Part shown: positions 3,905-60,625 of the stretch, piece by piece
How the letters are laid out: every line of letters begins with the position of its first letter
Numbering within the stretch: the stretch's first letter is position 1
From: Malacoraja senta
Lineage: Eukaryota
Assembly (NCBI GenBank): GCA_038087875.1
Contig: CM075989.1
Location: 13,022,001 to 13,086,000 of the forward strand
Direction: 5' to 3'
Length of the DNA stretch: 64,000 bases
Position numbers and translations under genes: made by a program
The notes under the pieces: generated by a model
What the model saw: the letters and a program-made list of their open reading frames with translations, nothing else
Told to the model about the DNA's origin: nothing
Databases searched by the model: none

Positions 3905-4065
3905 ACAAAGTGCTGGAGGAATTCAGTGGGTCAGGCAGCATCTGTAGAGTGAAGTAGTCAGACGAAGGTTCACATCGGGACTCTTCTGAAGACTCCCGGC
4001 CGAATTGTCTGTCCATTTTCCTTCACAGATGCTGCCTGACCCAGTGAATTCCACCAGCGCTTTCT
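3905..4065. repeat. Degenerate palindromic Penelope-derived (pLTR) mini-element
   Basis: Inverted arms tgctggaggaattcagtgggtcaggcagcatctgt / acagatgctgcctgacccagtgaattccaccagcg. Confidence 0.7.
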
Positions 4066-4099
4066 TTTTTCCCCTCTGGATTACAGTTCTGGCAACTTC

Positions 4100-5090
4100 T
4101 TCCCAGTATGTTTCCTGTAAAGACTCTATCCCCTACTCCCAATTCCTCCGTCTACGCCGCATCTGCGCCCAGGATGAGGTGTTCCATACCAGGGCATCGG
4201 AGATGTCCTCATTCTTTAGGAAATGGGGGTTCCCCTCTTCCATTATAGATGAGGCTCTCACTGGGGTCTCCTCGATATTCCGCAGCTCTGCTCTTACTCC
4301 CCCTCCCCCCATTCGTAACAAGGACAGAGTCCCCCTTGTCCTCACCTTCCACCCCATCAGCTGTCGCATACAGCATATAATCCTCCAACATTTTTGCCAC
4401 CTGCAACGGGATCCCACTATTGGCAACATCTTCCCATCTCCATCCCTTTCTGCTTTCTGCAGAAACCATTCCTTCTGAAACTCCCTGGTCAATTCGTCCC
4501 TTCCCACCCAATCCACCCCCTCCCGAGGTACTTTCCCCTGCAACCGCAGGAGATGCAACACCTGTCCCTTTACCACCCCCCTCGACTCCATCCAAGGACC
4601 CAAACAGTCTTTCCAGGTGAGGCAGAGGTTCACTTGCACCTCCTCCAACCTCATCTACTGTATCCGCTGTTCCAGGTGTCAACTTCTCTACATCGGCGAC
4701 ACCAAGCGCAGGCTCTGCGATCGTTTCACTGAACACCTCCGCTCAGTCCGTCTTAACCTACCTGATCTCCCAGTGGTTCAGCACTTCAACTTCCCCTCCC
4801 ATTCCCAATCTGACCTTTCTGTACTCGGCCTCCTCCATTGTCAGAGTGAAGCCCAGCGCAAATTGAAGGAACAGCACCTCACATTTCGCTTGGGTACTTT
4901 ACACCCCAGCAGTATGACCATTGAATTCTCTAACTTCAGATAGCCCTTGCTTTCTCTCTCCATCCCCTTCCCAGTTCTCCCACTCGTCTCTGCCTACATT
5001 CTATCTTTGTCACGCCCTCTCCCCTGACATCAATCTGAAGAAGGGTCTCGACCCGAAACATCGCCCATTCCTTCTCTCCAGAGATGCTGC
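4100..5090 (+). mobile_element. Penelope-like retroelement, 3' fragment (RT C-terminus, GIY-YIG endonuclease, pLTR with hammerhead-like core)
   Basis: SCKDSIPYSQFLRLRRIC and RVPLVLTFHP motifs; ORF 4617..4943 NLIYCIRCSRCQLLYIGDTKRRL..RF.EH (GIY-YIG); ctgaagaagggtctcgacccgaaacatc at 5035-5062. Confidence 0.85.
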
Positions 5091-5639
5091 TTTATTCTTT
5101 AGTTCCTCGGTCAGATGTAATGACAAGGCAGTACTGCTGGGTACAAATTTCCTTTATCCATAAGTTAGTAATCACGTACTTTCCTGGGTCATTAATCCTT
5201 TGCCAGAATCCGCTGGTTCTGCTGCCCATCTCCGAGAGACATGGACACCAGCTACACTGACCTGGGAACAAACTCGTTTGTTGCACTCTGCACTTGTTTA
5301 TTACTCTGCTGCTGAACTTCTTGGAATTGTTGCAAGAATTTGTTTTTTACTTTCGGTTTCAACTTCCTTGTTCTTCCTTCAATGTTCCCATTGTAATCAG
5401 TCACTCGGGGCTTCCAGTCAACCTTGGGAAAGCCCCACTTCTTGATCTCAAAAACCTTGCCCCTCAGTCCCATTTATTCCACCACCACCTCCTCTGGCCC
5501 ATCCCCTCTCTGACACAACAGCTCCAGGTTGGCATAATTATGTCCCCCAGACTGGCCTGGGCTGTGCGGGCACCTCTGTGTCCTGTAACTTATATCATAG
5601 AGTCTAATGTTTAATTTTCATCTCTTATTCCTCTGACAG

Positions 5640-5795
5640 GCTGCGTTATTGGCTCTACAAGAAAATGGGCTTGATGCTGCCGCAGTGACACAAATGCACT
5701 TCATGAACTCTCTTCAGAGTTTTCAACCTTCACTAACTGACCAGCACTTTGACTTTTACTGCAACCTGTTCTCAGCTAGGAACCCAGGAATGTGA
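5640..5795 (+). CDS. AFG2B: AFG2B/SPATA5L1 (AAA+ ATPase) last coding exon
   Basis: Polypyrimidine tract + cag acceptor at 5637-5639; [32 protein letters not shown]...* resembles recalled human SPATA5L1 C-terminus ([21 protein letters not shown]); synteny upstream of C15orf48. Confidence 0.85.
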   Translation, partial: [51 protein letters not shown]

Positions 5796-11640: not shown

Positions 11641-12349
11641 TGCGAGGAAAGGGAGGGTGGGCGGACAAATGCTCTCGGAGGCCTGAAGGGGTTTGGAGGG
11701 AACCTCGCGGGAGATGAGAGCTTCAGACCAAGGTCTGAGGTAGGGGAAGCGCCGAGGAAGTGCCGCTCGAACAGCATTTAGTGTTGGGTTTGGGTTGCTC
11801 CTGTAGACACGGTAGTTATGTGGGGAATTCCTCGAGATACATACCCTGGAAACTGGAGCAGAGTAAAACTGCTGGAAATACTCAGCAGGTCGGGCAGCAT
11901 CTGTGGAGACAAGATAAATGGTCGGCGGTTCGGGTTGGGACCCTGCATCAGAACTGTGTCCACAGGGTTCCAGAGGAGGATAGGGCAATGCTCCAAATGT
12001 GGGTCACGGATCCACATTTGGAGCATTGTGGCGTTCCAAGTCAGTGGTGGCCCAGCCTGCTTCATTCCATTATGGCCGCTGACTGTCTCAGGAAATAAAG
12101 TCAACTGATCGGAAACCTGTCCTCCGGCCCCCGGCCTGATGCCAGTGTAACAGTTGGTTAACCAGAATGACCTGGAACGTGGTGACGGTGAAGTTAGGGA
12201 AAAGGACACATACACAATGGGAGCGGTTTGTTGCGGGGTGGGGGGGGGGGGTTAATAGTCAACTGAATGACAGCAGCGAATTGGTGCTGATCTGGTAAAT
12301 ATCCTATCGTGGTGGGCTGAATGGCCTGTTCCTGTGCTTTTACTGGGCA

Positions 12350-13454: not shown

Positions 13455-14619
13455 CTAAGATTTGTATTCTATTGAATAACATTCTATTGAATTATCTGTC
13501 TCCCTTGTCTTGACCCCAGCACTGTGGACGTGAGAGAGACCGGTCCTGGGGAGTTGGGGTGGGATTGATTGGAGAGTTGGCCCGACGTCAATTGGCCGAT
13601 TCGTCTCCTTGTATAGTGTAAGAAAGTGTACAACGTGAGGGCGGGGGTGCTCAATGTTACCGACACATACTCCCCGAGGCTTGGAGGGAACCTCGTGGGC
13701 GACATGCGTTTCAGACTAAGATCTGAGGGAGACACGAGGAACTGCAGATGCTGGAATCCTGTGCAAAACACAAAGTTCTGGAGGAACACATCGGGTCAGG
13801 CAGCATCTGTGGAGGGAATGGACAGGGGACGTTCTTCAGAGTTTCTCCGGCACTTTTGTTATTGCTAAAGAGTTGAGGGGGCCACACATTGTGTGTGTGT
13901 GTGGGGTGGGGGGCGCAGGGAGGGTCGTGGTGTTGCGCTATGGGGACGTTGCAGGGTGGGACAGGCCAGTGCTGTCCACACCCCTCTGTCAGTATTTCTG
14001 CTTATTCCAGGACTAGCAGATGCACAGATCAATCATTCATCTAGATTTCTATAGTAGGTCCAACTTCAGAAGATCTCAACACCTGCCGCGTATCAATACA
14101 TGGTGTCCCCTATATCATACCCCATGTACAACCGTTCCTGCCTGTGTGTACGTACAAGGCTCGATCGTGTTTGTCTTATTTTCTCAAGTTTGCACGAATC
14201 CCACATTTTCACAGCGAATAGACGACCTGCAAGCAGTGAAATGCCAGGGAGCGGTGCTGAGGAAGCGCAGGATTCTCCGCTCTCCCGGGCTCGGAGCGGC
14301 TCCTCCGCTGACCATTCCTGTCCGCTGGGCGAGGCTGCAATTCCCCGTTTACCGACGCTCCAGGAAGTCCCGGCATCTCCCCGGCTATTGCCTGACCTCT
14401 ATGCCAGAATTCCCACTTCACCCCGGCACAGTGGAGCGAGTGCACTCGGTCCCAGCCACTCCTGTCCGAGCCCTCCTCGGGTAATTTAAAATGAAGAGAC
14501 GGAAACATCTGGCAGGCTGGTCCAGCCCGACATCAGCCCTCACACGGAGGGTTCGTGTCCCCAACACGAGGGGCGGCCTTGGGTAGTCTCTTGCCACAGC
14601 CCCCCACCGTCTTGTTGTG

Positions 14620-15400
14620 GCAAGGAACTGCAGATGCTGGTTTAAAAAAAACACACAAAGTGTTGGAGTAACTCAGCCGGTCAGGCAGCTTTGCTTCTGC
14701 AGATGCTGCCCGACCCACTGAGTTCCTCCAGCGCTTGCTTTGTTGTGAGAGACGGTTTCAACGCTGTTCCCGCCATTCCCCAATTCTCCCCCGTTACATC
14801 CAGGACCGCGTTACTGCTGCTTCCTCCACTCGTCGTCAATGCCACCAGTTTTGCTGCCAGTTTCCACCCCGCTCTCATCTTCACACGGCCCATCTCCACT
14901 CATCCATTCCAGGTCTCTCCTCTATCCTGTGATAGGCTGGACACCAGCATCCACCACAAGCCCACAGCCTCCCTCAGATTGGACCTCCTCCACCCTGCCT
15001 CCACTTCATTCTCTCAGTTCCTCTGTCTTGCCCACAAGTGCTCCAATGATGAAAGATGTGCCCCTGAAATGTTTTTCTTCTTGAACCATGGCTTCCCCTC
15101 TACTGTAGTGGACAGAGCCTCTGACCACATCTCATCCATATCCTGCTCTCGCCTCTTCTTCTAGACACCGCAAAACAGATGTGCCCTGGTCCTCACCCAT
15201 ACCCCAGCATCACCCACATTGGATGGTGTATCCTACACATGTGGAGGAAATAGTGAAGAATAGTTATCCAATGTTCAGCATCTGCGAGGGATCGTTCCCT
15301 TCCCACCTCGCCTACTGCTCACATAGAACACATCTTCCCATCCCATCATCCAGTGACCCAAAGAGGCAAGGCCGTGATTCACCTGCAGCACTCCAGTCAT
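14620..15400 (+). mobile_element. pLTR mini-element plus decayed Penelope-like RT fragment
   Basis: ggagtaactcagccggtcaggcagc arm; DRLDTSIHHKPT...SFSQFLCL resembles the 4100-4300 region. Confidence 0.6.
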
Positions 15401-19692: not shown

Positions 19693-20809
19693 GAAACGCA
19701 GAGTGAATGATGTGAGGAATAGACATAAAATATGCCTCAAACCATCAGTATACAGGCACAAATGGAACAAGCAGCACCAGAGGGGTGGGGGTGTTGTGGT
19801 CTTGTAATCCTTTCTCAGGATGAGGAAAATCCAGAACCAAAACAATTACTGCTCAGGTATCAGCTAATTTATAAAATGCATTGCTCAACTCACACGGATT
19901 ATCAGATAATCAGGAGTGGCACTCGGGGGAGTCCAGAGGTTTACTAGACAAAGGAAACATTAACTTTGTTTCTCTTCTTACAAATGCAGCTTGACCTGCT
20001 GAAAATTTCCAACACTTTGTTTTTCCTATCAGTCGAGTTTGCGTTATAAAGTTGGAGAGGCAATGATTGTATCCACTGGTGTTTAGAAGAGGGCGATGAG
20101 TATGAAAACACAGATTATTGGAAATAGTCAGCAGGTCAGTCAGTCAAACTGTGAGGAAAATAGTTCTCATTTTAGGTTGATCAGCAAAGCAGAAGAGAGA
20201 AAAGTTGGTAATTTTTAATGATTGGGAATCAGTTTTCCTATCTTATATCCTTTATTTCCAGAATTTAATCCCTCTCTTTTCCCCCTCCATCTCTTTAACA
20301 CTCCTCCAGACACTCATTCAGCATTCCTTCACGCACCACCTCCAGCACTTGTGTCCTTCACTCTCTCCTGGTAACGACCCGTTACAGATTTCCCCTTCCC
20401 CCTCTGCTTTTTCTCATTTTCTTTGCAACTTAAAACGTGTCACCTTTCTAACTCCTCCCAATTTGACCTGCAACATTTAACTCTAATTCTCTCTCCACAG
20501 GTGCTGAATGACCTCCTGAGAATTTCCTGTATTTTTGCTTTTCAATTAGTTACAATAGAATGTATGGGAGTTCAGATTTGGAATACTGGTATTTTGCCCA
20601 ATAGGGTACAGAGATGAATGAACTAAATGGGAGATTTCACACTTTAGGACATCAATGTTGATCACGATAAAGAAATGTACTCATAATAATGCGCTCTGTT
20701 GATGTGGCTGCAGTTCAAGCGAGCACAACCTGATTTGATTCTCAACCAAAGGAGCAACTGACACATACCCGATATGGTTTACAAACCATTTATGAAACAT
20801 CAGATATAA

Positions 20810-21000
20810 AATGCTGGAGTAACTCAGCGGGTCAGGAGGCATCCCAGGAGCATATGGATAAGTGACGTTTCAGACTGAAGAAGTGTTCCGACCCAAAATG
20901 TTGCCTATCCATGTTCTCCAGGGATGCTGCTTGACCCGCTGAGTTACTCCGGTATTTTGTGTCTTTCTTTGGTACAAGACAGCATCTGCAGTTTCTTGTT
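20810..21000. repeat. Palindromic pLTR mini-element
   Basis: ggagtaactcagcgggtca ... tgacccgctgagttactcc inverted arms. Confidence 0.75.
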
Positions 21001-21389
21001 ATAACATTTTTGAAATGTAATATTTTATTCTCTTATTTGATAACGATTCAAGAAAATAATGGTGAGGAATGAGGGGGGGGGGAAGCTGCAGATGTTGGAA
21101 AAACTGAAATGAAACAAAAATATGCTTCTGCAAGCCCTCTGCTAGTGCAGTAGGGACACATAGCACACCTCCCAGTGTCAGAGTCCTTCAGAAGGTAGTG
21201 TTCACGGACATTATAAACCCACTGATTACTATCACAAAACACAATTAACTTTTCTGTTGTGTGGGAAATAATGGTGCCTTCCATGAACCCGATACTCCTG
21301 GTGCAGGACCAGACTACTCCCCGATTAGAGCTGCTTTCCAACCACTATCTGTAAGAGAAGAATTAGTACTTTTGTGCTGAAATTTGTAC

Positions 21390-21495: not shown

Positions 21496-21999
21496 CTGTG
21501 GGAGAGTAAGAGTAACCATGAAGTGGAGTCAAAGCCACAACACCATGCTGGGTCAGGGACCCAATCAGTCGTGTGTTTCACACACCCAAAACATCCGTCA
21601 ACATCTGGTCAAAGGACAATTACAATAATCCAGCATACTCGGGAATTTGCTGGTTTTGAACAAGCAGATTTCTTGAATTTATTGAATTATTGAATGATAC
21701 TCCCAATACACTTTTACTTTGCATGTTATAGAGTCGTACTGTAATTTTATCAGTGAACCCAGCACATTTAAAGAAAGCATAAAACGGCTCTGGATGAATT
21801 CAGAAGGCGCAGGTAATCAAGAATTTGATGCAGACTATTTGTTAACAGACTGCCTCCTAGCATCATCTCAACACCCAAAAGTCTTGTAAATCCAATCCCA
21901 TTCTATTCAATTATTGTGTCTCCAAAAATGGAAAATCCGCCAAACTATCTGGATTCAGATAGTTTGTAGGGATCTGAGGGAATCATCCCAAGTTGAGAA

Positions 22000-22260
22000 A
22001 ATGTGTAGGATGGAACTGCAGATGCTTTTTAAACTGAAAAGAGACCAAATAAATGGAGTAACTCAGCTGGTCAGACAGCATCTCTGGAGAAAAGGAAAAG
22101 ATGATGTTTCGGGTTGAGATTCTTCTTCAGACTGAGAGCCAGGGAAAAAACTCTCAGTCTGACTCTCTGTTCGAAGGGTCTCGACCCAAAATGTCACCTA
22201 TTTCTTTTCTTCAGGGATGCTGCCTGATCCGCAGAGTTACTCCAGCATTTTGTGTCTATC
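22000..22260. repeat. Palindromic pLTR mini-element with damaged hammerhead-like cores
   Basis: Inverted arms around cttcttcagactgagag...ctctcagtctga. Confidence 0.75.
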
Positions 22261-23544: not shown

Positions 23545-24309
23545 CTGTAAAATTTAAATTACAAACATGAACGTTTTAAACAGTGAAAAATCTGCATACA
23601 CAATCGCTTGGTCAGTGTTTGACCACAAAATTCTGCATCATCCTGCATAGTCAAATTATTACTGAATATAAACCTGGCATGCAGCCTGGCATCATCTCAA
23701 CACCTGGCACAAAACCTCGATCAAGTGAAGCCAAATTAATTTAATCAAATAATTTCATCTCAGTGGATGGAAATTAATTCTCCTAAAGACAGTGAATCTG
23801 GAGTGATTAAGTTAGAGCACGAATTAACACACAGAGAACCGCAGGTGCTGAAATCTTGAGTAAAACACCAAGTGTTGGAAAGGAGATGTTTTGGTTTGGA
23901 ACCTTTCATCAGACTTTTGAAGAAGGATCTCTACCCAAAAGATTGTCAGTGCTGGAAATAAGTTTTGCTTGGGAAGAATTACAACAATAGCACATTCAGA
24001 ACTGTCACTGTTCATAGATGTGCTTACACCCCACACTACACTTACCCCTTGATACTGGGCACTCTCCCTCTCCCCTACACCCCCATACACTGCTGGGCAT
24101 ACCCCCTCCCAAGGCTACTAGACTCACTCTGACCTGGTGCCACCCTTAACCTCTTCCAGCAATGTCTAATTCCATACTGTTCCCACCCAACCACAATTCT
24201 GGGCACTCACAATATCAGCCAATACTAATAATGATTACCCGACATTCCTCCAACCTTTGGATGTTACAACCAATGAATCTGTGAAATTGGACATCCAGCC
24301 CAAATGATG

Positions 24310-25106: not shown

Positions 25107-25663
25107 CTGCAACACACGGGGAGAAAGTTAGTCACATTAATAATGTACAAAACAAATAATGCAAGCATTGTCAACTCGACGACAGAAGACACTAGTCAGG
25201 ACGAATGGGCTGATCACATCAAGCACAATGATCATTGTCACAACTACATGACAACTGAACCAATGCAAAATATATGAGGAATGTGAATACCACAGCATTT
25301 TGGTACATTGTTCAACTATGCTGCCATCGACAATCTGGAGAGGGGGCAGAATGTACTCAAATGGTTCCAGAGATGAGGAATTTCAGCAATAAGATTGGTT
25401 GGAAAAGCTGGAGTAAACGAGGTTCTGAGCAGGTTTGACAGAGATCTCCCAACAAGAATGCACCCACTGGTACCCAAAGATCTTAAGCAGAGGGTGGCAG
25501 TGCTAATCTCATTCCACACATGCCGCCTCATTATGAAACATCCTCCTACAATCCATATAGAATGCATCATGTGATATCCACACAGCCATTCCTTGTTACC
25601 CCCACAAAACATTCAATTGTCCTGGACTAATTTGTCTTGGATTAATTTGTGCTTCCCTTCTTT

Positions 25664-25795
25664 AGTCTGAAGAAGGGTCCCAACCTGAAACGTCACTTAT
25701 CCATGTTCTCCAGAGATGCTGCCTGAACCACTGAGTTACTCCAGCACTTTATATCCTTTTGTGTAAACCAGTATCTGCTGTTCCTCGTTTCTATC
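25664..25795 (+). repeat. Solo pLTR mini-element with hammerhead core
   Basis: ctgaaga-agggtcccaacct-gaaacgtc at 25667-25694. Confidence 0.75.
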
Positions 25796-30400: not shown

Positions 30401-30651
30401 TTCCCTGGTATGATTGTCACTGGCACGAGGAGCCACATCTGCAACCACAGAAACACACCCCAACCATTGAATTCCCTATCATTATTGTTCTCACATTTTC
30501 TTCCCGCTCTCCTATGCAGCCAAGCCATTCAGTGTCATGATCCTAACTCTGTCTGCATTCCTTTACAGACCCCTAATAGCGTGCCAAATGGACGTCTGCT
30601 CAACAACAATGACTCATTCATTACTCACGGGCTTCTTCTAGTCTGACCCAA

Positions 30652-30745
30652 TCAGTCTGAAGGGCCCCTCCCTGAAACGTCACCTATCCATGCTCTCCAG
30701 ATGTGCTGCCTGACCTGCTGAGTTACTCCAGCATTCTGTATCTCT
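30652..30745 (+). repeat. Degenerate pLTR mini-element
   Basis: ctgaaacgtcacctatccatg...gctgcctgacctgctgagttactccagca. Confidence 0.7.
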
Positions 30746-30829
30746 CCTTCCAGTCTGATTGATGGTCCCCCATGAACTCTGCCTTGTCAAACCCAAGCTA
30801 CAGTGTGATCACCTCCCCAATCATGTTAT

Positions 30830-38000: not shown

Positions 38001-38259
38001 TGTCCGACCTGACAAGTATTATTTGTTCTTACTGTAGATTTACAATTGATTTTTTGGCTTATTAATCTTAGGTCCTCACGTTGAGTCTGGACAAGTAAAA
38101 CGTCAACAATTATTTTCCTCCCACAGATGCTGCTCGACGACTCGAGTTTCTCCAGTAATTTAAATTGAACAAAATTGAGCTCAGCTCTGAAAAAAATGGC
38201 TCAAGGATGGAAGATAACGTGTTGTGGCAAGTGGTTGTCTTATTTTCACTATAGACAGT

Positions 38260-38428
38260 TGTGTAGGAAGGAACTACAAATGCTGATTTATACTGAGGAT
38301 AGACTTAGTGGGCCAGGCAGCATCTCTGGAGAAAAAGTCTAAAGAAGGGTTCCCACCTGAAACATCACCCATCCTTTTTCTCCAGAGATGCTGCCTAGAT
38401 CTGCTGAGTTACTCCAGCACTTTGTGTG
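38260..38428. repeat. pLTR mini-element (degenerate)
   Basis: gcagcatctctggagaaaa ... ttttctccagagatgctgcc. Confidence 0.7.
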
Positions 38429-39049
38429 TGTAGACAGTGTGCTAAGGTTAATGGTAGAATCACCTGGTCGCCTTGTTCTACAATTAGGTTAGTAATTCTT
38501 CCAAGGGTTAGGATGCCACAAAAATGGATCTCTTGAAGGAGGAGTTCATCATGTGGCTGGTGGTCAGAGATTGCTGCATCTTCTTTGGCAATTGAAGGTT
38601 GTCTATATTTTCCTTGTGGGGTCAACCCAATTACCAGGCTGCAATTGTCAAAGAGCTAAGAGGTCTTGAGAGATGGGTGGGGTTATCTTTAATGTTTTGG
38701 TAGCTGTTGGGAGGGGTGTGTGCAAGTGGAAGAAGATGAGTTCGCTGGTTAAAGGGAATCCTTTGTTCACTGTGAGTGAAATTAATATTGGAATACAATT
38801 TAATTTGCCTACAATATGACAAAGGCGAGTAGAATGGACAGAGGGGTGGAAATAGAATTTAGTATTGAATTGTGAGGTGATACATTTTTGGAGAAGGAAT
38901 GGAAAAAGGCAATAAAAACTTAATGGCACTATTCTGAAGGATGTGCAGCAACAGTGTGACTTGAGATTCATGTTTGAAGATGGCAGGACACGTTGAGTGA
39001 ATGCTTAACAAAGCATATGGGATTTTACACTTCAGCATGAATCACCTGT

Positions 39050-42378: not shown

Positions 42379-42689
42379 TTTGATACATCACCCAACCTAT
42401 CCATGTTCTCCAGAGATGCTGCTTGACCCGCTAAGCTACTCCAGCACTTGGTGCAGTTTTTTGTAACCAGCATTTGCAGTTCCTTATTTATGCATATTAC
42501 ATTCATTTATGTAACTATATAAAACGAAACGGGAAAGATGACGATGGTTCTTCAGATACACTCAGAAATTATAAAATAAATAAGAGAATGGGAGGGCCGT
42601 TTGCATCATTTTCACTGGCAGAATCGGGGAAAGCACCTTGGAATTTATGGAAAGCGAAAAATGAGCAACCTATAGTAAATAAATAAGTG

Positions 42690-43245: not shown

Positions 43246-43317
43246 GGCAGGAGGATAACTCGTGTCCACAGTGGGGGAGACGGCAGGAGGATAACTCGTG
43301 TCCACAGTGGGGGAGAC
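43246..43317. repeat. Perfect 36-bp tandem duplication
   Basis: ggcaggaggataactcgtgtccacagtgggggagac x2. Confidence 0.95.
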
Positions 43318-46320: not shown

Positions 46321-46409
46321 ATACTGCTGGGAAGCAGAGTCATTGACAATATTTAAGTGGATTGGTAACTACGAATCGTTGGGCATAGAAATCCATTGGC
46401 CAGGTACCG

Positions 46410-48763: not shown

Positions 48764-48908
48764 GTCTCAGCGAAAGCATTACAGAGTTTGAGAGCTCTGG
48801 CGAGTTATCGTGTGTGAATCAAGAGACAGTGGAAAAGCTGACAGAAGGATTAATATCTCACTACCTCCCCGATCTAAAGCAATTGAAAAATGCCCTGCAG
48901 GAGCTGAC
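48764..48908 (+). CDS. BLOC1S6: BLOC1S6 (pallidin) exon 2
   Basis: ctcag| acceptor; VEKLTEGLISHYLPDLKQLKNALQELT |gtatgt. Confidence 0.93.
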
Positions 48909-51049
48909 GTATGTCTATGAAAGTATTTATGCTAGGGTATTGATTGATTATTGATTGTTTTGCTATTTGCTGAGCAAGTGTACTTTTTATGAGGAATAAG
49001 CCGAGAGACAATCTGGTGGCAAATTGAAATATTCTGCTTTTCTGCAGCTGTTATGTGCCATTAGTTCTCATTCTGTTTGATCAGATCAATATTATAGACG
49101 GGAACAGAAGCAAGGTGGTTAAATCACAGGACCGGTGATCCAGAGGGCTTAAGATTCCAGCCCTGAGCCAGCTCTTACTGTGGTTACTGGGAATTTAAAT
49201 TCATTGAAATAAATAATCCACACCTAAAATGTCTTTATTTGTGGCCACAATCAAACAAATTGACATTTTAAAATAATGTACATTTCACAAGTATTGTTTA
49301 GGGAAGGGAACCTGCCTCTCTGGCCTTGGGCCTGCCCTGACATGTTTCCCATGTGCACTCTGACCTGGCCTGGCAAGTGTTCTGCTGCACTAACCCATTA
49401 TGGCAAAAACAAAAGGAGAATTAAACAAGCAGAACTACCAGATAATGACCAAAGCACATTGAGTACTGCACTGTGGAAGAAATCTCCCTGTACAGCGCAG
49501 CAGTGGTTCAAGACAGTAGCTTGTCACTTTCTTGTACAATTTTGCAGATGAGTAATAAATGCTGACCTTGCCATCAGTATCAACTATAATGAGAACTGAA
49601 TAAAGTTGCATGACTAATTGATTTTTGCCTAAATTGGTATTAAAATTACATTGGATGTTTTTTCCATACAGTTAATTCCAGTGGGAATGTTGTTTGCCAT
49701 TTATACAGGCTCCACAAATGGATAAACGTACCAAGGAAAAATGATGACTTTGCTTTCAGTGTCTTTTTGGCTTTATAGTCCTCCACGTTTCAGAATCGCG
49801 AGCTATCCCGAAAAGATGTAATCCCCATATTAATTGTGTTGAACCTCACTCAGCAAGTCACAAACATACAAGTTAGATGCAGAAGTAGGCCCAGGCCCAA
49901 GAGCCTGCCCCACCATTTAATAAGGTCACAGCTGATCGTACTGTAACTTCACCTCTATGTTTCTGTCCATTTATGGTTCTCTTATTTTTAATCAAATGTT
50001 TATCTAGCGCTACATTAAAAATGTTCAAAGATAGATGGGTGATGTGTATGGGCAAATATCTGGAAGATGGTTTATAAGATGAGGAAATGTGATGTTGTCC
50101 ATGCTGCCCTTCCCTCATCCTTCGAAGGAGAATGTTCCAAAGATCACCCAGCTGAAGAAAAAAATATTGCTGCCTCTGTCTTAAATGGTTGATCCCCTTT
50201 TTAAATTGTGACCCGATTCTAGATTCTTTTACGAAAGGAAACATACATTCCACATCCATCCTGTTGATCCCTCAGGTCTTGTATGTTTCAATCAAGACCA
50301 CTCTTCCAAGCTGCAGCAGATACAAGCCTAGCCAGTTCAACCGTTACTCTTAAGATTAATTGCTGATTGTTGCTATCAATCTAGTAAACTTCTGAACTGC
50401 TTCCAATGCATTTGTACCCGTCGTTAAAAAAGGACGGCAATATATACACAGTACTCCACATACAATCTCACCAATGTCATGTATAAGTTTAGTATACCCC
50501 CTAATTTTTGTGTTCAATTGCCCTCAATAAAAAATAATATTGTTAACCTTCCTGATTAGCATCAATATGTACACTCAACTTTTGTGAATTATATTCAAGG
50601 ACATCCAACTCTCTCTGACTCTTTCAGTCTCGCACCATGCACATATTCCGCTTTCCTTCCTGCCAATATGGACAAATACACATTTTGCTGTTAAACACCT
50701 ATCTGTGTCCTTTTCCATCTCCTTGTGACCACTTCACAACTTACCTTCTTGCCTGCCTTTGGCAAAAGCTGATCTCACCCTGTTAGTTTCTGCACGTATC
50801 TCAGCTACACACAGACAGGAGCTTAAGAAGAAGCAGCATTTGTTTGTGGGAACCATTGAGTCGACCTCCTCTTTTTCTCTTGGTGTTTCAATCATGCTCA
50901 GGTACCACAGATACTCTGCATAAAGAAACCTCTCATCTCAGTCCAAAATAGTCTTACCCTGACCCCAATCTTTAGTGCTCCCCAGCTTGATGATGCAGAA
51001 ACCTCTCCTGAATATCGATAAGAAGGAGCTAGATATTGCCTTGAGGATG

Positions 51050-51800
51050 TGAGGTATAGTATCAGCATCAATGGTGCCGTTGTAGAAATGGTCGAAAGCT
51101 TCAAGTTCCTAGTTGTAAATTTCACCAACAATTTGTCCTGGACCAACCACATTAAAGCTATGACCCAAAAAACGCAGCATCGCCTCTTCTTCCTCAGGAG
51201 ACAAAAGAAATTTGTCATGTCTCCAACAATTTGTACCAACTTCTACTCATGCACTGTGGAAAGCATATTATTGGGTTGCATCATAGCTTGGCTTGGGAAC
51301 AGCTCAGCCCAAAACTACAAGAAATTGCAGAGAGTTGTGATGTAGCCCAGTCCATCACTTAGACCAGCCTCTCCACCATGGACTCCATACACACTTGTAT
51401 TGCTTTGGGGAAAGTAGCCAACGTAATGGAGAGCCATTTTCACCCTGGTTATTCCCTCTGTTCCCTTCTCCCGTCAGGCAGAAGTTTATTAAGTTTGATG
51501 GCACATACCACCAGATTCGGCAACAGCTTCTTCCTTGCAGTTATCAGACTACTGATTGATCTGCTCATGAACTAGGGTTTAGCCCCAATCTTCCAAACTC
51601 ATTGTGGACGTTGGATTTTTTTTCTCCGTAACTAACGCTACAATTCTGCATCATTAAATCTGCACTCTGGTGTTTTTCTCTTTGCACGACCTGTTGTACT
51701 TCTGTACGGCTTGATTGTACTCGTATTATTTGATTTAACGTGATATCATGCAATCAAAGCTTGTCACTGTATCATGGTAAACGTAACAATAATAAACCTG
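51050..51800 (+). mobile_element. Decayed Rex-Babar 3' fragment
   Basis: INGAVVEMVESFKFL...RLFFLR...FYSCTVESIL; LLPSGR; RFGNSFF.AVIRLL. Confidence 0.75.
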
Positions 51801-52828
51801 TACCAATACAAGTAGATCCCTCTCAGAATCTTGTGCAACTCGGAGGTCAGTTCTTAACCTTCTTAACTCCCCTGACCATTGGCCAAGCTTGTCAGTCTTT
51901 CAGAACACAGCCTCTGTATTACAGAAAATAATCCAGGGATTCTCCACGACTCTGATTACAATACATGTACATCTTTCCTTGGGTGCAGAGATGAAAACCA
52001 CCAGGTGCTCACCAAAACCCTATACATTCTTAGAAGTCTTCTAACTTTTGAACTCCACTCCCATGTGGCAGAGATTGTTCATCATTTATCTCTCCCTGTT
52101 GCTGGACCTGAATGTTCAAAGCACCCAGCACTCTAAACCCATGTTTACAGTTTCTCAGCTTTTAAAAAGGATTCTGCTTTCCTGCCCTGCCTACCAAGCT
52201 TTGCATTGCCTGCATTATGTTTAATTTGTCACCTTCCGCATTTCTACATAGACCCAATGCTCTTCTGGCAAATATGTAAATTGGAAGATTGCAAGTATAA
52301 TGAAAGTGTCAGGGGACTTTATATAGTCAGCTCAAAGGCGCACCAATCTCAGCCATCAGAGAGGTTAAAGTGAAGAATAAGAGAATTGCAAAGATGTTAT
52401 GTGACTGAGTAATGATGTGGTGTAAACCTGCAAATACTATAAAAGATTAGAAATAAAGTATGATGTTTGATATTAGCAATTGGAATAAAGGGAAGCAGAC
52501 TCACTGCAGAGAAAATCTAACAGTTCTTTAAACCTAGGACAGACGGCAAGAGGGTCATAGCTGGGGTAATTTTGGGGTAGAGAGTATGTGTCACGGGGGA
52601 GCATGGAGGGGAAGGCAAGTGTGTCTGACCGTATGCAGGTGATTGTGAATGACTTGCTGTGATGCTGAGCCTTGCTGTAGCTGAGTGTCAGTGTTCCAGT
52701 CTGTTTCTCCGAAAATCCTAGGAGGAATATAGCTTCTCGGTGGAAATCGATGCATGTTGTATGAAATGGAGCTGAGAATAGCGATGAACTTGGTCACTTT
52801 TTAAAACTCTTTGTTTTATCTGTTCTAG

Positions 52829-52916
52829 ACAGAATCAGGTGGTACTATTGGACACCCTGGAGCAACAGATTGCTAAATTCCGTGAGTGTCATTTGGTGCT
52901 GGATATTAATGCACTA
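52829..52916 (+). CDS. BLOC1S6: BLOC1S6 exon 3: QNQVVLLDTLEQQIAKFRECHLVLDINAL
   Basis: ttctag| and |gtaagt; near-identical to recalled pallidin sequence. Confidence 0.95.
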
Positions 52917-52944
52917 GTAAGTACAATTTTAATGCTGCTAAATT

Positions 52945-53176
52945 ATAGCTGCTAAATTTGTATAAGATAATTATAAGCAGTTGAATAAGGGGTGGGAATT
53001 AATAAGCTTTGGCTTCTTCCTGCTCCTTTTCAGACACATACGATTTAATTTATTTATAAATATTGTTTATGACACTTTATAAATATTCTTGTTTTGTTTT
53101 TTGTATGCTGTTTCACACTTGCTTTTTATTCTTTTATTCCGCTCGAAATAAATAAATAAATAGATAAATAAATAAA
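52945..53176 (+). mobile_element. Short LINE 3' end with (AAAT)n tail (Crack/L2-like, tentative)
   Basis: AT-rich body, ggggtgggaattaataagc...cttcttcctgctcctttt, ending in gaaataaataaataaa. Confidence 0.4.
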
Positions 53177-53926
53177 TGCAGGCTGATTAAGGGATAAAAA
53201 AGGCAGCACAAGGTTTGAACTGGCTTCAGAATCGCATTCTCTCAGCAAAGGAAAGGCCTTTCATCTCCAAGTGCTGCTGCCAGCTCACTGGTGGGATGAG
53301 GGCTGATTTTTAGGAGGCAGGGTACTGATTTACATGATCGTGGGGAGGGGCAACTTTGATTTTAGTAACAGTGCTGTGATTGTTGCTGAAATCCAGTGAG
53401 CTGATTGGCATATAATCAGATCAAGGAAATGTGACTCTTGTAACATTTGATAATTAAGGACTGGATGCCATCTGAACAGAAACTACAAAAAGGCACTGAT
53501 TTGTCATGATGGGAATGTGGTGAAAGTCCATGAGACTGGTTCCAGGGAAAGCAAGTTTGTCATGTGAGGAAAAGTTGAATAGACTTGGTTTATGTTCTGA
53601 GTTTGAGGAATCTGAGATGATTTCTTTGAAATTTAAACTTCTTTCAGGACTCTATAGGCTAGATGCAAGGGGGGCTATTTCTACAGCAGAAGAGTTCAGG
53701 ATTGGGGTCACAGCTCGGAGTGGCAGAGAGGCAACATTGGACTGAGATAGGAGAAAGTTTTCCACTTGGGAGGTGATGAATCTTTGCAATTCAATACAAC
53801 AGAGGATGTCATTGAGTTTATTCAAAAAGGATAACAATGAATTCCCTTAATATCCAGAAATCTGTGGAGAGAGTGTAGGTAAGTGATATTGAAGTAAAGA
53901 ATAGCCGTGGTATTGATGAATGACAG

Positions 53927-54052
53927 GAAGATTGCAACCTTCACATGGTCCGCCCTGTTTCGACTAATGCAATCAACTCGACGTGCACAAACGGAAGATC
54001 AAATAGAACAAGTTGTCCAACAACTTTAGGCTGTGCACGCCACACGAAAGAA
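53927..54052 (+). mobile_element. 126-bp structured insertion with 12-bp TSD
   Basis: gatgaatgacag at 53915-53926 and 54053-54064. Confidence 0.7.
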
Positions 54053-54545
54053 GATGAATGACAGAGTAGAGAACTTTTTTTAATCTTACTGCTAGTTGTT
54101 ACTTTTGTATTCCTGGTAATGGATAAGGCCGAGCCTGTCTGCACTATCTCATTAGCCAGCTGCAAAATAGGTTACCACCTATATATTTTAATGGTTTTAC
54201 CTTGCATCAGTAGATAGCAGGTCAGTTATTGATAGATATTGAAATGTGGTGAACAGGTGAGATATCTGTTCACAGAAAGATACAGCATGGAAACAGGTTC
54301 TTCAACCCACCGAGTCCATGCCAACCATTGATCACCTGTTCACTGTATGTTATCCCACTAATCATCTACCTACTCTCCAGACATTTATCAGAGTTCCACT
54401 TGGTTGTGGGTGGGCTCCTTTAACTTGTACACATTCTTAACTCAGCCTATGGCTAACAATGTTAGAGGGATATGTTTCTCAGTGATTATGTCATCTGTTC
54501 ACTACTTCGGTACACCTAACAATAAATTAAACTATTTTCCTGCAG

Positions 54546-54632
54546 TTCACAGAGGCCAAATGTTACCACGATAAACTGGTGAACATTCGCAGGGAAATGG
54601 TCACGTTGCATGAAAAGACATCAAGACTAAAG
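54546..54632 (+). CDS. BLOC1S6: BLOC1S6 exon 4: FTEAKCYHDKLVNIRREMVTLHEKTSRLK
   Basis: ctgcag| and AAG|gtatgg. Confidence 0.95.
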
Positions 54633-54686
54633 GTATGGACCACATGACTCTCACTGGGGTATCTGAGCCATCTCTGACAAATCTGT

Positions 54687-54782
54687 GGTAGACAAAAGTG
54701 CTGGAGAAACTCAGCGGGTGCAGCAGCATCTATGGAGCGAAGGAAATAGGCAACGTTTCGGGCCGAAACCCTTCTTCAGACC
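54687..54782 (-). mobile_element. Solo pLTR mini-element (96 bp) with hammerhead core and 15-bp TSD
   Basis: ctctgacaaatctgt at 54672-54686 and 54783-54797. Confidence 0.85.
54752..54779 (-). ncRNA. Putative minimal type-I hammerhead ribozyme core
   Basis: Minus strand CUGAAGA-A-GGGU-UUCG-GCCC-GAAAC-GUU. Confidence 0.6.
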
Positions 54783-56446
54783 CTCTGACAAATCTGTACC
54801 CTATATGCGTCATTCTGAATCCTAAGCCATTTGCATAACTTTGCATCATCTATAGCTTATTGTCCAAAATTATTGCCAGCAATGATTCCCATTCCTGGGC
54901 TGGAATGGGCTGATGCTTTGAGAGCTTCCACTCCAGCTGATTGTTTTTCAACCCAGATGCTGGGCTGAGTATGGAATCTCCACTGGTACTATTGCCACAT
55001 TCCATTACTTGTCCCCAGTCCCATTTCAGTTGGTTGTCATCGTGATGCTTGCAGCAACCGAACACAGTTCGTATTCCTCAGTGCTTTGCTTGCTTGCGGC
55101 AGGAACAATGGGAGCAGAAACATCGAAAACACAACTGCTAAGGCAGAGAAACAGAGCTAATGGTTTAGATTGATGGTCTTCGTTGCACTTCTGTGACCTG
55201 TAGTCACGTCTGAACCATTAATTCTGTTTTTCTTGCTGCCTCACTTGCTGAATGGTTCCAGCAGCTGGAACCATAATACTTTCGAGATCTGCAGGATTTA
55301 ACTTTTCATAGATTGAAATTTTCAGCTCAGGAGGACACTGTTCGGCATGTTGTATGACAAAGTCTGTTCTGAGAGTCCTCCACATAGGCCTTGGGTCAAT
55401 TACTTAGATTTTTTTAGCTCACTGTTGTACACATTCTGCTGGCACTGAGCATCCCAGCAACTCTGAAGGGAGATTTTCTATTGATAGTGTCAGGGTGAAC
55501 TTGGCGCCAGGTCTTGATGGAGAACACTTGTAATGATGAGCGATTGTCCAGTTTTAGACCTGGAGGTTGTGGAGGAAGCTAATCTCTCAGGCAGCACCTG
55601 TCCTTGGCATTCACTGAGTGCTTTGCTGATCCATGGTAACTCCATGCACTGAGTCCTGGTGAATGATTTGAGACATTTTAAACCTTGTGTCGCGGCACCA
55701 GACGAGTGAATAAACAGTTGCTTTATTCAGGTGTTACATGTAAGTTTGGTCCACTAACATAATTGTCATTGCTGCTGTAGCTGAGCGAGGGTGTTGTCTC
55801 GAGCTCAGCTACCTGATGACTGGGGTGATCTCAAGGTGAGATATGCTTATGTAGCAGGACACTCCCCTTAGCCCCTGACATCACATGACAGCCTTCGTAA
55901 CTACTGACGAGGGTTCGACCATAAGTCGTCTGTGTATCAGCTGACACCACACTTGTTTTATTTCCATTGACAGTACAGTTTGTTGCTCACTTTTTTACTC
56001 TCTTGCATGTTGTGGTTGTTGCTGGCAATACTGGCTTTTATTGCCATCCCTACCTGCCTTCAAGAGGTGGTGGTGAGCCACTGCAGCCCGTGCGGTGCTC
56101 AGTGTTGGGAAAGTTTTAAATTATGAGAAGCTAAAAGCAGTGGAGGAGCAGAAAGGTTTGGGAGGTTAAAAACTGGTGGCCAGATGCAAGATCAAATGAA
56201 AAGATCACTGGTTGCTACAATGTTTCTATTCCAAATTCTTGGAAGTAAGTTAACTGACTGAGCACAGTTGGTGAGTTCCAGTTCTTAGTTGGTTCGAATC
56301 TTTCTTCTGCTCCACAAGGTATATTCTGAAATATTATGAACTTTGGCCATTATGTCATTTATCATTGATCAATTTGCTCCATTTTATTAACTTTTGCAAC
56401 TTCTCGGTTCTTATTGGATTTATGAATGGCTTCATTTTGCGTCTGT

Positions 56447-56470
56447 CTCTCTCTCTCTCTCTCTCTCTCT
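56447..56470. repeat. (CT)n microsatellite
   Basis: Direct read. Confidence 0.9.
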
Positions 56471-56629
56471 GTTGCCCAAGCAGAGTGTCTCTGCAGCCTT
56501 TAAATTGTGTTTTGGAGCTTTCTGCTGTGTTTGATTCTGCCTTTTCATGTCGGCTCCATGTCCCCGTCCATGGGGAATCGTCTTGATGGATCAGGTTCAG
56601 CTTTTGCGTGGTTTCTCCTTTGTTTGCAG

Positions 56630-56749
56630 AAACGAGCTTTAAAACTTCAGCAGCAGAGACGGAAGGATGAGCTGGAACATGAGCAGCGGCGGGAGAAGGA
56701 ACTTGAGCGTGAGCGGCAGCTGGTTGCCAAGCCTGCCAAGCTCGTCTAG
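56630..56749 (+). CDS. BLOC1S6: BLOC1S6 exon 5: KRALKLQQQRRKDELEHEQRREKELERERQLVAKPAKLV*
   Basis: ttgcag| acceptor; pallidin C-terminus; total CDS 495 nt. Confidence 0.95.
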   Translation, partial: KRALKLQQQRRKDELEHEQRREKELERERQLVAKPAKLV

Positions 56750-57742: not shown

Positions 57743-59364
57743 ATGTTTTAAAGAAGTTGTAAATATTTAATTCTACTGCAGGCTCCTCTCCCTCTGCCAC
57801 TTCTCCTAAGCAGCTGTGGTGTGGTCAGGTTTATTGTCCAATGGAGAAGTCTAGTGAGTACAGGTACAATGAAAATCCTGCTTGCAGCAGCATCACAGGT
57901 ACATAGACTCGGACAAAACACAAAAACATAAATTATACATCAATATTTCTAGTGTTTTCTGATTTTATTGATGGGACCGTCACAGGCTCATCGGATCTGA
58001 TGATTTTGGATTTATTTAGAAATGGCTGTTCTGTTTATCCCATTCCACTGCCTATCTGCAGTTAATCCGCACAACACTGGCATCCTCGCTGGCAGCTCAG
58101 GCCATGCTACTAGTCATTCCCGGGCTGAACTGCCCCTACCTCCCCAGCCCCTCCTGGGGAAACAAGAAGTGTTCAGCCATCCCACCCGCTCCCGTCCCCT
58201 ACCTTTCTCTCTGTTTGAACTCTCCTCGGCCAGACTGCACAGAGACTGCCGAATCCCAGGACATCCCCCTGCAGAGTCTCCCATCCCACTGCAATGTTGA
58301 TGGGGACAAGGACATGGCCAGGGATACAGCAGGGTTTGACTGGGTGAGGTCAGGGCCAAGAGGTCTCCTTCATTGCACCTGCTGAAAATATTGACCATCT
58401 TCATTTGAGAAAGCATTTAAAACTTTGGCACAGCAGGAGTCCATGCAGCCCATTGCCTCCATGTCAGCCAAGCAATTAATAATTACAGAATCCCTGTCCC
58501 CACCCCCAATCCTCAACCTTCAGCCCCGCATCCTTCAAATCTTCACCCAACCAAATGAGCTTATTTCTCCTTGAGGCAGCGAAAGAAGAAAGCCAGAAAA
58601 TTCCCAGCCCAATTTTATATCTTAACCATTTCCTTCAATTCACCTCTAACCCTTCCTGAACTGTGGCTTCCCCTCTACCCTTATGGACAGACTACTTGAC
58701 CAAATCTCATCTACCTCCCACCCCTTCTCTCACCACTCTCCTCTGGTCCAGAGATCCCTATTCCTCACCTTCCACAGCCCCTTCCCCCAACCTCTGCATT
58801 CATTGGATCATCCTTTGCAATTTCTGTCCTCTACAAAAAAGCACCAAACTTGTTCTTTCTACTCTCATGTCAGTATTTTGAAGGGATCGTTCCTTTCACA
58901 ATTCCCTGGTCTGCTCTTCTGTCCCTGCCTATCACTCCCTGAATTATGGCACCTTCCCATGGACTTGCCCTTTCACTTCTTCCTTTCCCATCATCCAAGA
59001 ACCCAAAGAGTTTTTACAGATGAAACTGCAATTCTCTTGCACTTCCGATCTAGAATACCGTATTCAGTGTTCACTACATTGAAGAGATCAAATGCAAGTT
59101 GGGTGATCACTTTGTGTGGAGCACATTCACCCAGTACCCCCAGACAACCACAAGCTTCCCATTGCCTGAAAAAGACTTCATAACAAATTTTTGCTCCTAA
59201 TTTCTATTCTGCTCTTTCTGGAGAGTTCACCGAGTTTAGGCCTGAGATAAACTTATACACCTAAAAAAAAATCTTAACTCAGTCTTTCCCATTCCAAAGG
59301 AAATAACTTTATAGTCTGTCTGCATAATTATAATTCTCCAGCCTGACTCTTCTATCAATTTAAG

Positions 59365-59545
59365 TATTGGAGCAACTCAGCAGGGCAAGCAGCATCTCTG
59401 GAGAGAAGGAATGGGTGACATTTCGGATCGAAACCCTTCTTCAGTCTGAAGAAGTCTCCAGAGATGCTGCCTGTCACGCCGAGTTACTCCAGCATTTTTG
59501 TCCATCTTCAATTTAAAGCAGCATCTGCAGTTCCTTCCTACACAT
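59365..59545. repeat. Palindromic pLTR mini-element
   Basis: Centre cttcttcagtctgaagaag; arms gcagcatctctggaga / tctccagagatgctgc. Confidence 0.8.
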
Positions 59546-59815
59546 TTCTTCTATCAACTCATTTAATCCCATCCACACTTTGTGATGACACATAATACCT
59601 GCTGAATGGAGCTGTGCACTATATTGTAGTTGTGGAATAACTAATGCAGCAGTTTGAGCATTATCTCCTCTCTTACATTCTGTCCTTGTCAATAAAAATC
59701 AGCTTTTATTTCTAAAGCAAATATCCTTTTTGTCGTTTTCATCTTTAAAAAAAAATGCTAGAAAAACTCAGCAAGTCAGGAAGCATCAGTGGGAAAACCC
59801 CCCACTAATGATTCA

Positions 59816-60016
59816 TGTTTAAGAAAGAACTGCAGATGCTGGTAAATCAAAGGTAGACTCAAATTGCTGGAGTAACTCAGCGGGTGAGGCAGCGTCTTTG
59901 GAGAGAAGGAATTGGTGACGTTTCGGGTCGAAACCCTTCTTCAGACCCTAAACGTCGCCAATTCCTTCTATCCATAGATGCTGCTTCAGCCGCTGAGTTA
60001 ATCCAGCATTTTGTGT
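59816..60016. mobile_element. Palindromic pLTR mini-element with 14-bp TSD, nested in an older copy
   Basis: ccactaatgattca at 59802-59815 and 60017-60030. Confidence 0.85.
59917..59944 (-). ncRNA. Putative minimal type-I hammerhead ribozyme core
   Basis: Minus strand GGU-CUGAAGA-A-GGGU-UUCG-ACCC-GAAAC-GUC-ACC. Confidence 0.65.
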
Positions 60017-60625
60017 CCACTAATGATTCAGGTGTGAAACCCTTCAGAACTGGGGAAGAGAGATCACGATGTTTTCAGTTCCAGAGTGAGGGAGGAGCAG
60101 ATAGGATAAAATAAATATTATCAAAAGGGTGAGGCCAGGATTGCCATGGAGATACACCATAGATGGAGTTAACCAAATGACAGGTTGATGAATGCAGTTG
60201 GTGAGAGGAGAAACAATGAACTAAGGAATGTGAGAGCTGTCAACAGCTGTGTATCCCGGCCGGTGTTCCAGCTGGGTGACTCACCAATCCCTGCAGTAAT
60301 TAGTCCCTTTGTTCACAGGCTTACTCCAGCATTCGCAGGAAATCTTTTCAGATTCAATAAAACTGATAATCTGCGGTCTGATTGTTCGGAAATAAGACCT
60401 GAGATAAGACTCTATGGGGAGTATTTTATATGAAAAAAATTATTTGACACAACCACTCAGTCAATGCCACATCTCTCCAGGTTATTTGTCAACAAACCTC
60501 TAATTATTATGTAGATCTCTCGTCATTGTGCATTGCGAAAGCAGTTCATTGTTTTAAGAAACTGCAGCCTGTGGCCCTCTCTTGTCTTGGAAAATGTATG
60601 GAGCCAGCATGACAGTTACATTCAT

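Follow-up and report, generated by a model that had tools for sequence, protein, structure and literature searches.

How did short non-coding repeats carrying a minimal hammerhead ribozyme come to be scattered through the genome of the skate Malacoraja senta, and do they persist as working ribozymes? This question is raised by a stretch of 64,000 nucleotides of contig CM075989.1 (assembly GCA_038087875.1, positions 13,022,001 to 13,086,000 of the forward strand; hereafter the window). A sequence-only reading of the window had noted about 15 copies of a Penelope-derived repeat of 90-260 bp and had proposed a non-autonomous, retrozyme-like family, mobilised in trans, whose palindromic copies could supply a ribozyme core on either strand. 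We found that each repeat unit is the 3' arm of a Neptune-type Penelope element. The repeats are probably abortive insertion products, in their shortest form, of a Neptune-type Penelope-like retrotransposon that is very abundant in skates; the hammerhead core would be functional sequence for the parent element and a decaying passenger in the copies.

Repeat family and parent element

Arms were collected by self-comparison and with a profile seeded with nine arms (cut-off, 10 bits), and the resulting catalogue covers the 64-kb window and comprises 23 loci. Thirty-two arms scored at least 10 bits in the profile search, as against a maximum of 8.6 bits in 10 Markov-shuffled windows, and they total 2686 bases, or 4.2% of the window. 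Each arm opens with the hammerhead core, at model positions 8-35, and continues for about 60 bases; some arms also have a tail of about 37 bases. Identity to the model ranges from 64 to 90%, and several subtypes are present. The repeat was recovered at all 16 sites named in the sequence-only reading and at eight further sites (19954, 20104, 20489, 23834-23948, 35452, 55234, 59748, and 62152). Exact-pattern scans for the arm gave no match in metagenome contigs or in viral contigs, and a protein-based scan of viral contigs returned 64 candidates, none of which was a relative.

The Penelope origin proposed for the repeats was upheld. The arm follows a GIY-YIG open reading frame (ORF), with the core starting 92 bases past the stop codon at 4941-4943. 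The ORF (4076-4943) shares 59% identity over 282 amino acids with a whale-shark protein (P0003, residues 171-451), which itself matches reverse transcriptase (RT) and GIY-YIG domains. The window copy is a fragment without the RT core, and its match to the Pfam GIY-YIG model (E = 0.0012) is below the cut-off; its closest proteins are those of Leucoraja and Rhinoraja (74%). The frame at 4479-4943 contains a CX4CxxC motif before the endonuclease, and a CX2-5CxxC linker has been described as the mark of Neptune and Nematis elements (PMC8557442). By its motifs and insertion signature, the element can be classed as a canonical endonuclease-bearing (EN+) Penelope-like element (PLE) of the Neptune type, with a linker that is common to Nematis. 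The GIY-YIG frame of the element is also fused to host exons in two public skate gene models (P0001 and P0002), which may reflect an annotation artefact or exonisation. A related element lies inside a 20-bp satellite array that switches strand (L056:2400-5340).

Insertion signature

Target-site duplications (TSDs) with a score of at least 9 were detected at 6 of the 23 loci (17, 15, 14, 13, 12, and 12 bp), compared with 8 of 400 random pairs; at a score of 8, the counts were 10 of 23 and 17 of 400. TSD length ranges from 8 to 17 bp. The TSDs enclose the short unit itself, and these units are therefore direct insertions. Their 3' ends fall into two groups about 37 bases apart, one at positions 92-101 and the other, as placed by the TSDs, at about 136.

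At nine loci, two arms are joined head to head as an inverted pair, and the nine junctions are all distinct. The tail is present on exactly one arm in eight of these pairs (trivially so in one, where the second arm is short), on neither arm in one and on both in none. Overlaps of GAC/GTC at 59816 and CTGA/TCAG at 20798 account for those two junctions. Six pairs have arms that differ in how far they reach 5'; in five of these the arm with the tail reaches further, as predicted by fold-back of a complementary DNA (cDNA). Inverted partial copies were also found at the related loci L003, L013, L024, L026, and L029 (14 examined).

The TSDs, the varied junctions and the one-sided tail match the published pattern of Penelope insertion. 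Published EN+ PLE insertions show strong 5' truncation, a head-to-head inverted and truncated copy, a palindrome at the junction, a 30-40-bp tail at one end, TSDs of variable length and, in Neptune and Nematis, the CX2-5CxxC linker (PMC3846280; PMC8557442; PMC8969392). The skate units differ from these insertions in being mostly 90-260 bp long, in mostly having no ORF and in having 5' ends that cluster at the 5' edge of the ribozyme.

In addition to the nine head-to-head pairs, two old arms at 19954-20178 lie tail to tail with 78 bases between them. The 59816 pair was inserted 10 bases from an older arm fragment (59748-59792), and an inverted pair lies no more than about 110 bases from each of two ORF relics; elements of this class have been reported to insert near older copies.

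The 5' edge of the arms

The 5' ends of the window arms were curated by eye (n = 33). Sixteen stop between positions 72 and 10. The other 17 reach position 9, and 14 of them go no further than position 2, so that stops are about 20 times as frequent here as further 3'. Only three arms extend into the upstream sequence of the pseudo-long terminal repeat (pLTR), and none of the 33 ends lies within 2 bases of the hammerhead cut site. The profile itself ends at this edge, but most of the 14 arms adjoin the other arm or the TSD there. The precise arm ends argue for uncut RNA as the template.

The same edge was observed in contigs from four sequencing runs of three organisms (113,000, 119,000, 147,000, and 9,900 contigs), aligned to 4350-5130 at 80% likeness. 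The depth step and most loose contig ends fall at 5030-5036 in all four runs, mostly with unrelated flanks. In run X1, the summed depth reached 12-25 million across the arm, compared with 0.4-5.2 million across the ORF and 0.1-1.1 million across the upstream pLTR; in the three large runs the arm reached 4-7 times the highest ORF bin; these depths are not copy numbers, and the upstream pLTR of the reference copy is diverged. Loose ends peak at exactly 5034 in part artificially, owing to a change at 5033 that is private to the reference copy; the edge is to be placed at 5030-5036. Contigs starting at the cut site would have only 28 alignable bases, and the cut-site argument therefore rests on the window data.

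The sequence TCAGTCT at the edge fits the initiator consensus. The upstream tract (4944-5033) is 80% pyrimidine and, in the family majority, ends in CAG directly before the core, which gives it the look of a splice acceptor. This candidate was set aside: relatives have no conserved AG at that offset, no upstream exon common to the arms was found, and the contig joints give no support for an acceptor. In Drosophila virilis, a 75-base intron ends at the ribozyme, and transcription starts 46 bases ahead of that intron (PMC2377424; PMC4209133).

Head-to-tail joints from 5090 back to 5034 occur in 10, 19, 16, and 2 contigs of the four runs, and joints from 5065-5069 to 5034 with short linkers also occur; among the joints listed, tandem joints make up less than 0.1% of the local depth. 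The joints from 5065-5092 to 5034 are tiny duplications of the core with units of about 35-60 bases, and they would be natural dimers and possible seeds of retrozymes. At least one joint between opposite strands is among those listed; it was given no weight for or against any reading. In run X3, four of the six linkers listed for the 5065-to-5034 joint end in GAG where the pLTR has CAG.

The hammerhead motif

A descriptor of the minimal hammerhead (CUGANGA ... GAAA ... UH, with a short stem II and one bulged base before stem II) matched five sites in the window (5035+, 25667+, 54779-, 59444-, and 59944-), compared with 0.13 per window in 30 shuffles. Relatives were taken from 62 metagenome loci encoding related proteins, of which seven with fewer than 250 bases past the ORF were dropped. 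The motif was found on the sense strand 87-453 bases 3' of the ORF in 17 of the remaining 55 loci, 15 of them at 87-165, and in none of 1100 shuffles; several of the 17 are near-duplicates, about 10 being independent, and the match at 453 is doubtful. When the five window cores were aligned with 12 non-identical relatives, 92% of the stem cells in these 17 sequences were paired, as against 24-57% in slid controls. Two-sided changes occur at all three stem I pairs and at two of the four stem II pairs (five of seven in total); the descriptor required stem II for most rows of the alignment, and stem I was free of this selection. The ACGU palindrome is the family majority in the runs, is also found in relatives and is intact in three of the five full-core window arms. 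As judged from sequence and pairing, the hammerhead motif is genuine at the level of the element. The minimal type-I form with a palindrome in place of stem III, as the sequence-only reading had it, is present in both the window and the related loci, with covarying stems.

An Rfam scan of the window matched no hammerhead model up to an E value of 10. The best matches were microRNA (miRNA) models on hairpins, far below their thresholds, and appear because the arms are inverted.

The details reported for individual copies fared unevenly. The stem II loops CUCG, CCCA, and UUCG are as described. The copy at 5035-5062, previously read as GAAAC-GUH, is in fact GAAAC-AUC, and its ACGU palindrome is therefore broken (ACAU); G at this site is the family majority, with 82, 65, 68, and 82% of the summed depth in the four runs. 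The statement that stem II stays paired holds for 7 of the 11 core-spanning arms, four of them by way of a G-U wobble, and fails in the rest, and no window copy shows a two-sided change in stem II.

An 8-bp stem is also predicted between arm positions 55-62 and tail positions 110-117 (e.g., 59816-59915, minus strand), with no two-sided change among eight copies. A motif at arm positions 83-89, resembling that of this stem, precedes the tail-less end, and the tail may repeat an RT start signal.

Decay and folding of the copies

Among the 11 core-spanning arms, all 11 catalytic bases are kept in six, stem II in seven and both in five. In non-CpG columns, the core matches the majority at 101 of 110 sites (91.8%) and the flank at 483 of 562 (85.9%; p = 0.12 by Fisher's test and 0.075 by permutation). 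Within the flank, the distal part stands at 89% and one octamer at 95%, and CpG columns have fallen to 72%. Better preservation of the core than of its flanks, which the sequence-only reading had made its own touchstone, thus comes out as a near null in these 11 arms.

The suggestion that palindromic copies offer a core on either strand was not borne out, since none of the nine inverted pairs holds two intact cores. The inverted arm is antisense; it therefore provides no dimer partner and instead pairs with the core and hides it. Folding was calculated with nearest-neighbour energies, a model that leaves tertiary contacts and help from protein outside. The inverted-pair hairpins are predicted to fold at -20 to -126 kcal/mol, and the two intact cores inside pairs would cost 11 and 20 kcal/mol to open. 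For homodimers, the hammerhead fold would lie 10-29 kcal/mol higher than the dimer minimum. Joining the minus-strand cores at 59944 and 59444, 500 bases apart, as a dimer in cis would cost 37 kcal/mol, though the stems would pair. Core loss and the predicted folding suggest that the copies are mostly not working ribozymes. Paired arms differ at 14-25% of sites in the seven scorable pairs, and the hairpins are therefore not being maintained.

Proposed mechanism

The Anolis Poseidon element PAc provides a biochemical reference (Frangieh 2024, PMC11167929). In that study, PAc nicks DNA and begins reverse transcription at two internal positions of the RNA, one on either side of the tail, roughly 110 bases into a region beginning at the hammerhead. 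The template is mainly uncut RNA, nicking and extension take place on both target strands, the product length follows the RNA 5' end, and the ribozyme cuts only with its protein (PMC11167929). The two 3' ends of the skate arms fit the two internal RT start sites demonstrated in vitro (PMC11167929). PAc belongs to another clade, lacks the linker motif and is known from biochemistry in vitro, whereas the skate element is known from sequence.

In the mechanism that we propose, RT would start at one of two internal sites, copy through the uncut hammerhead and usually stop a few bases beyond its 5' edge. This cDNA could then be joined to the target directly, giving a solo arm, or it could fold back or meet a second cDNA via 2-4 complementary bases, giving an inverted pair. 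Three causes of the edge may be considered. Our tentative preference is that RT runs off the 5' end of the RNA at the initiator-like motif; a stall of RT at a folded or protein-bound ribozyme seems less likely, and it is slightly less likely again that the templates were themselves short copies.

A further proposal, which we did not find in the literature searched and regard as rather doubtful, is that the stubs document, across the genome, a 'strong-stop'-like step of Penelope transposition. The mRNA would begin a few bases before the hammerhead, RT would start 95 or 135 bases in and leave the template at its uncut, perhaps capped, 5' end, and the resulting short cDNA would integrate alone or as a fold-back. 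In its boldest form, the ribozyme palindrome would pair two RNAs for a two-ended insertion, and cutting would be needless. The GAG ends of the linkers are a weak hint of a copied cap. If this proposal is true, the tens of thousands of skate ends would make the origin of inverted pLTRs and tails testable by counting, and likewise the in vivo role of the ribozyme.

Several observations weigh against the explanation by abortive insertion, or against parts of it. The sharp edge is not predicted by plain random 5' truncation, with only three arms going further 5'. The transcription start in D. virilis lies about 120 bases before the ribozyme (PMC2377424; PMC4209133). A match of this kind to the initiator is expected by chance in about 8% of spans of 8 bases, and the motif was not seen at that offset in the related loci. 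In the pair at 38260, the tailed arm reaches less far 5' than its partner, so that fold-back of a single cDNA would need a later deletion, and no special cDNA fold-back hairpin was found at the edge, where the DNA stability is about -1 to -2 kcal/mol. Finally, all 11 core bases are kept in 6 of 11 arms where about 2-3 would be expected from the flank divergence. As a trend, this excess favours some constraint and counts against pure neutrality; it may be inflated by the profile, whose seeds had good cores and which favours arms that match well at the 5' end, and by subfamily differences in the flank.

Alternative explanations

The repeats could instead be a non-autonomous Penelope family resembling short interspersed elements (SINEs). 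Short copies, transcribed from a pLTR promoter or within host introns, would be copied in trans by a Penelope protein that needs only an internal RNA signal, with ribozyme cleavage and circles playing no part. This explanation is compatible with abortive insertion, and trans-mobilisation by pLTRs and non-autonomous PLEs has been published (PMC3846280; PMC8557442). Arm-only loci outnumber ORF relics by about 7:1 in the window, the arm exceeds the top ORF bin in summed contig depth (not a copy number) in the three large runs, several arm subtypes exist, and the sharp 5' edge could reflect short source copies. However, the repeats have no sequence of their own beyond the 3' end of the parent, the nine distinct junctions argue against two-armed masters, the outer ends of the pairs are the two 3' end positions of the element rather than a random truncation point, and little or no captured flank lies inside the TSDs. 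We consider such a family improbable as the explanation of these loci. Far less probable is a true retrozyme, in which tandem units would self-cleave as dimers, circularise and reinsert, the dispersed copies being monomers and the pairs giving a core on either strand. The head-to-tail joints from 5090 back to the first base of the core speak for it, as does a 2026 preprint that derives vertebrate retrozymes from pLTRs and lists one chondrichthyan (10.64898/2026.07.22.740005). Against it, the profile and the descriptor revealed no tandem head-to-tail cores at any of the 23 loci, none of the curated 5' ends falls at the cleavage site, tandem joints are rare among those listed, no pair carries two intact cores, and the predicted energies disfavour both kinds of dimer. 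The retrozyme-like character claimed in the sequence-only reading is thus not supported in the window.

It is similarly very unlikely that the inverted pairs move as DNA, in the manner of miniature inverted-repeat transposable elements (MITEs), or that the arms are deletion or recombination leftovers of longer insertions. Long terminal inverted repeats and stable hairpins would suit the former; solo pLTRs without TSDs in rotifers have been ascribed to recombination or deletion (PMC3846280), and 13 of the 23 loci here are without a TSD above background. The TSDs, however, vary in length (8-17 bp), abut the short unit and also flank solo arms, the ends of the pairs are made unequal by the one-sided tail, and the junctions differ.

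Comparison with known systems and significance

The skate motif resembles the minimal hammerheads of Cervera and De la Pena in its core, in the bulged base between 9 and 10.1, in G10.1-C11.1 and in the palindromic 15.2-16.2 without stem III, and differs in its stems, which have 4 bp (stem II) and 2-4 bp (stem I) in the skate (PMC4209133). That study reported thousands of dispersed single minimal motifs 'probably related to truncated PLEs', motifs occurring in twos, 100-700 bp from each other and on opposite strands, and minimal hammerheads in fish Xena, Poseidon, and Neptune elements (PMC4209133). We found no mention of chondrichthyans in that study, although its supplements, and those of the 2026 preprint, may list chondrichthyan motifs; insertion ends, which were analysed here for the skate arms, lie outside its analysis. 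The skate units also share with non-LTR retrozymes their non-coding nature, a type-I hammerhead, derivation from or relation to pLTRs and dispersed monomers (PMC7229834; 10.64898/2026.07.22.740005). Metazoan retrozymes, however, are defined by tandem units (PMC7229834; 10.64898/2026.07.22.740005), and have units of about 300 bp, canonical ribozymes and circular RNA (PMC7229834), whereas the skate units are solo or inverted with minimal cores. MRC1 of Chlamydomonas, a non-autonomous PLE, likewise has a 3' end in common with an autonomous family; elements of this type form pLTRs, head-to-tail multimers and families of their own, in contrast to the solo or inverted skate arms (PMC8557442). The skate repeats are members of the minimal-hammerhead class that lack the tandem arrangement and the cut-site ends of a retrozyme.

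The searched literature, from which most subscription papers, Repbase and Dfam were outside coverage, contained no description of the skate family or of 5' ends clustering at a ribozyme edge; the family may already be named in Repbase or Dfam. As a ribozyme or retrozyme discovery these loci add little, since truncated Penelope elements were already known in 2014 to leave minimal hammerheads that are dispersed or lie on opposite strands. Their value is as a data set for two open problems, namely how the inverted repeats and tails of Penelope form and whether the ribozyme cuts in vivo, in a family that makes up about 4% of the window and is abundant in runs of at least three organisms. In annotation, the hairpins are easily mistaken for MITEs or miRNA precursors, and they are better masked as stubs of Penelope.

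Features of the window

Table 1. Penelope-derived features of the window (positions of the whole stretch; + and -, strand)
Feature	Position	Strand	Remarks
Possible TSD of the 3894..4071 pair	3882/4072		12 bp, 1 mismatch
Inverted pair, head to head	3894..4071	.	Older-subfamily arms, untailed, cores degenerate; found by profile; probably an insertion separate from the adjoining ORF fragment
Penelope-like ORF, 5'-truncated, broken	4076..4943	+	End of RT region, CX4CxxC linker, GIY-YIG; frame break near 4476-4478
Upstream part of pLTR	4944..5033	+	80% pyrimidine; ends in a putative initiator-like or acceptor-like motif before the core
Minimal hammerhead core, ORF-bearing copy	5035..5062	+	Catalytic bases intact, palindrome changed to ACAU, stem I 1 bp
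Arm of ORF-bearing copy	to near 5092	+	Breaks off there
Solo arm	11851..11952	-	Untailed, core broken
Inverted pair	13727..13865	.	Tailed - arm with core deleted; second arm short
Inverted pair	14620..14740	.	Without core region; tail only on - arm; 8-bp TSD
Second Penelope ORF relic, more decayed	14850..15200	+	tblastn 39% to P0003, E 1e-9
Three old diverged partial arms	19954..20561	.	64-71% to model
Inverted pair	20798..21004	.	Tail only on + arm; core broken (G12 changed); 11-bp TSD, 1 mismatch
Inverted pair	21999..22257	.	Tail only on - arm; stem II broken; 17-bp perfect TSD; both arms reach 6-12 bases into upstream pLTR
Decayed inverted pair	23830..23952	.	Tail on - arm; absent from the sequence-only reading
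Solo tailed arm	25662..25795	+	Intact core 25667-25694, G10.1-U11.1 wobble; SLC30A4 intron, antisense to gene
Solo arm	30647..30746	+	Untailed, 3-base core deletion; 12-bp TSD, 1 mismatch
Two separate partial arms	34580-34659, 35452-35555	-, +	Core lacks its 5' half
Old partial arm	38096..38165	+	3' half of core only
Inverted pair	38260..38430	.	Tail only on - arm; G5 of + arm core changed; 8-bp TSD
Solo tailed arm	42384..42490	+	Core mostly missing
Solo arm	54687..54782	-	Untailed; intact core 54752-54779, GUU site, 4-bp stem I; 15-bp perfect TSD; BLOC1S6 intron, antisense to gene
Short old arm fragment	55234..55275	+	Found by profile
Third Penelope ORF relic	58650..59073	+	
Inverted pair	59360..59546	.	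Intact core 59417-59444 (-), no stem I pair, buried in hairpin; tailed + arm with internal deletion; 13-bp TSD, 1 mismatch
Short old arm fragment	59748..59792	-	Found by profile
Inverted pair	59816..60016	.	Best core 59917-59944 (-), predicted by folding to be hidden under the second arm (opening cost 20 kcal/mol); tail only on - arm; 14-bp TSD
Old partial tailed arm	62152..62231	+	Found by profile

Host genes and other repeats

Two host genes were located head to head by tblastn, with coding exons of SLC30A4 running from 36944 to 17731 on the minus strand and those of BLOC1S6 from 43136 to 56746 on the plus strand. A BLOC1S6 exon is 93% identical to that of Amblyraja radiata and at most 77% to those of other rays. 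All five intact cores are oriented against the nearest host gene (SLC30A4, minus; BLOC1S6, plus), only two of them lying in mapped introns. This orientation could be due to chance, to the antisense bias that intronic repeats usually show, or to selection that removes sense copies. Relics of long interspersed elements (LINEs) lie at 31228-33771 (+), 40711-42259, 43917-45017 (-), and 24277-24819 (+), and include an 847-aa open frame with endonuclease and RT domains, similar fragments, and RTs matching ALKBH8_N and DUF6451.

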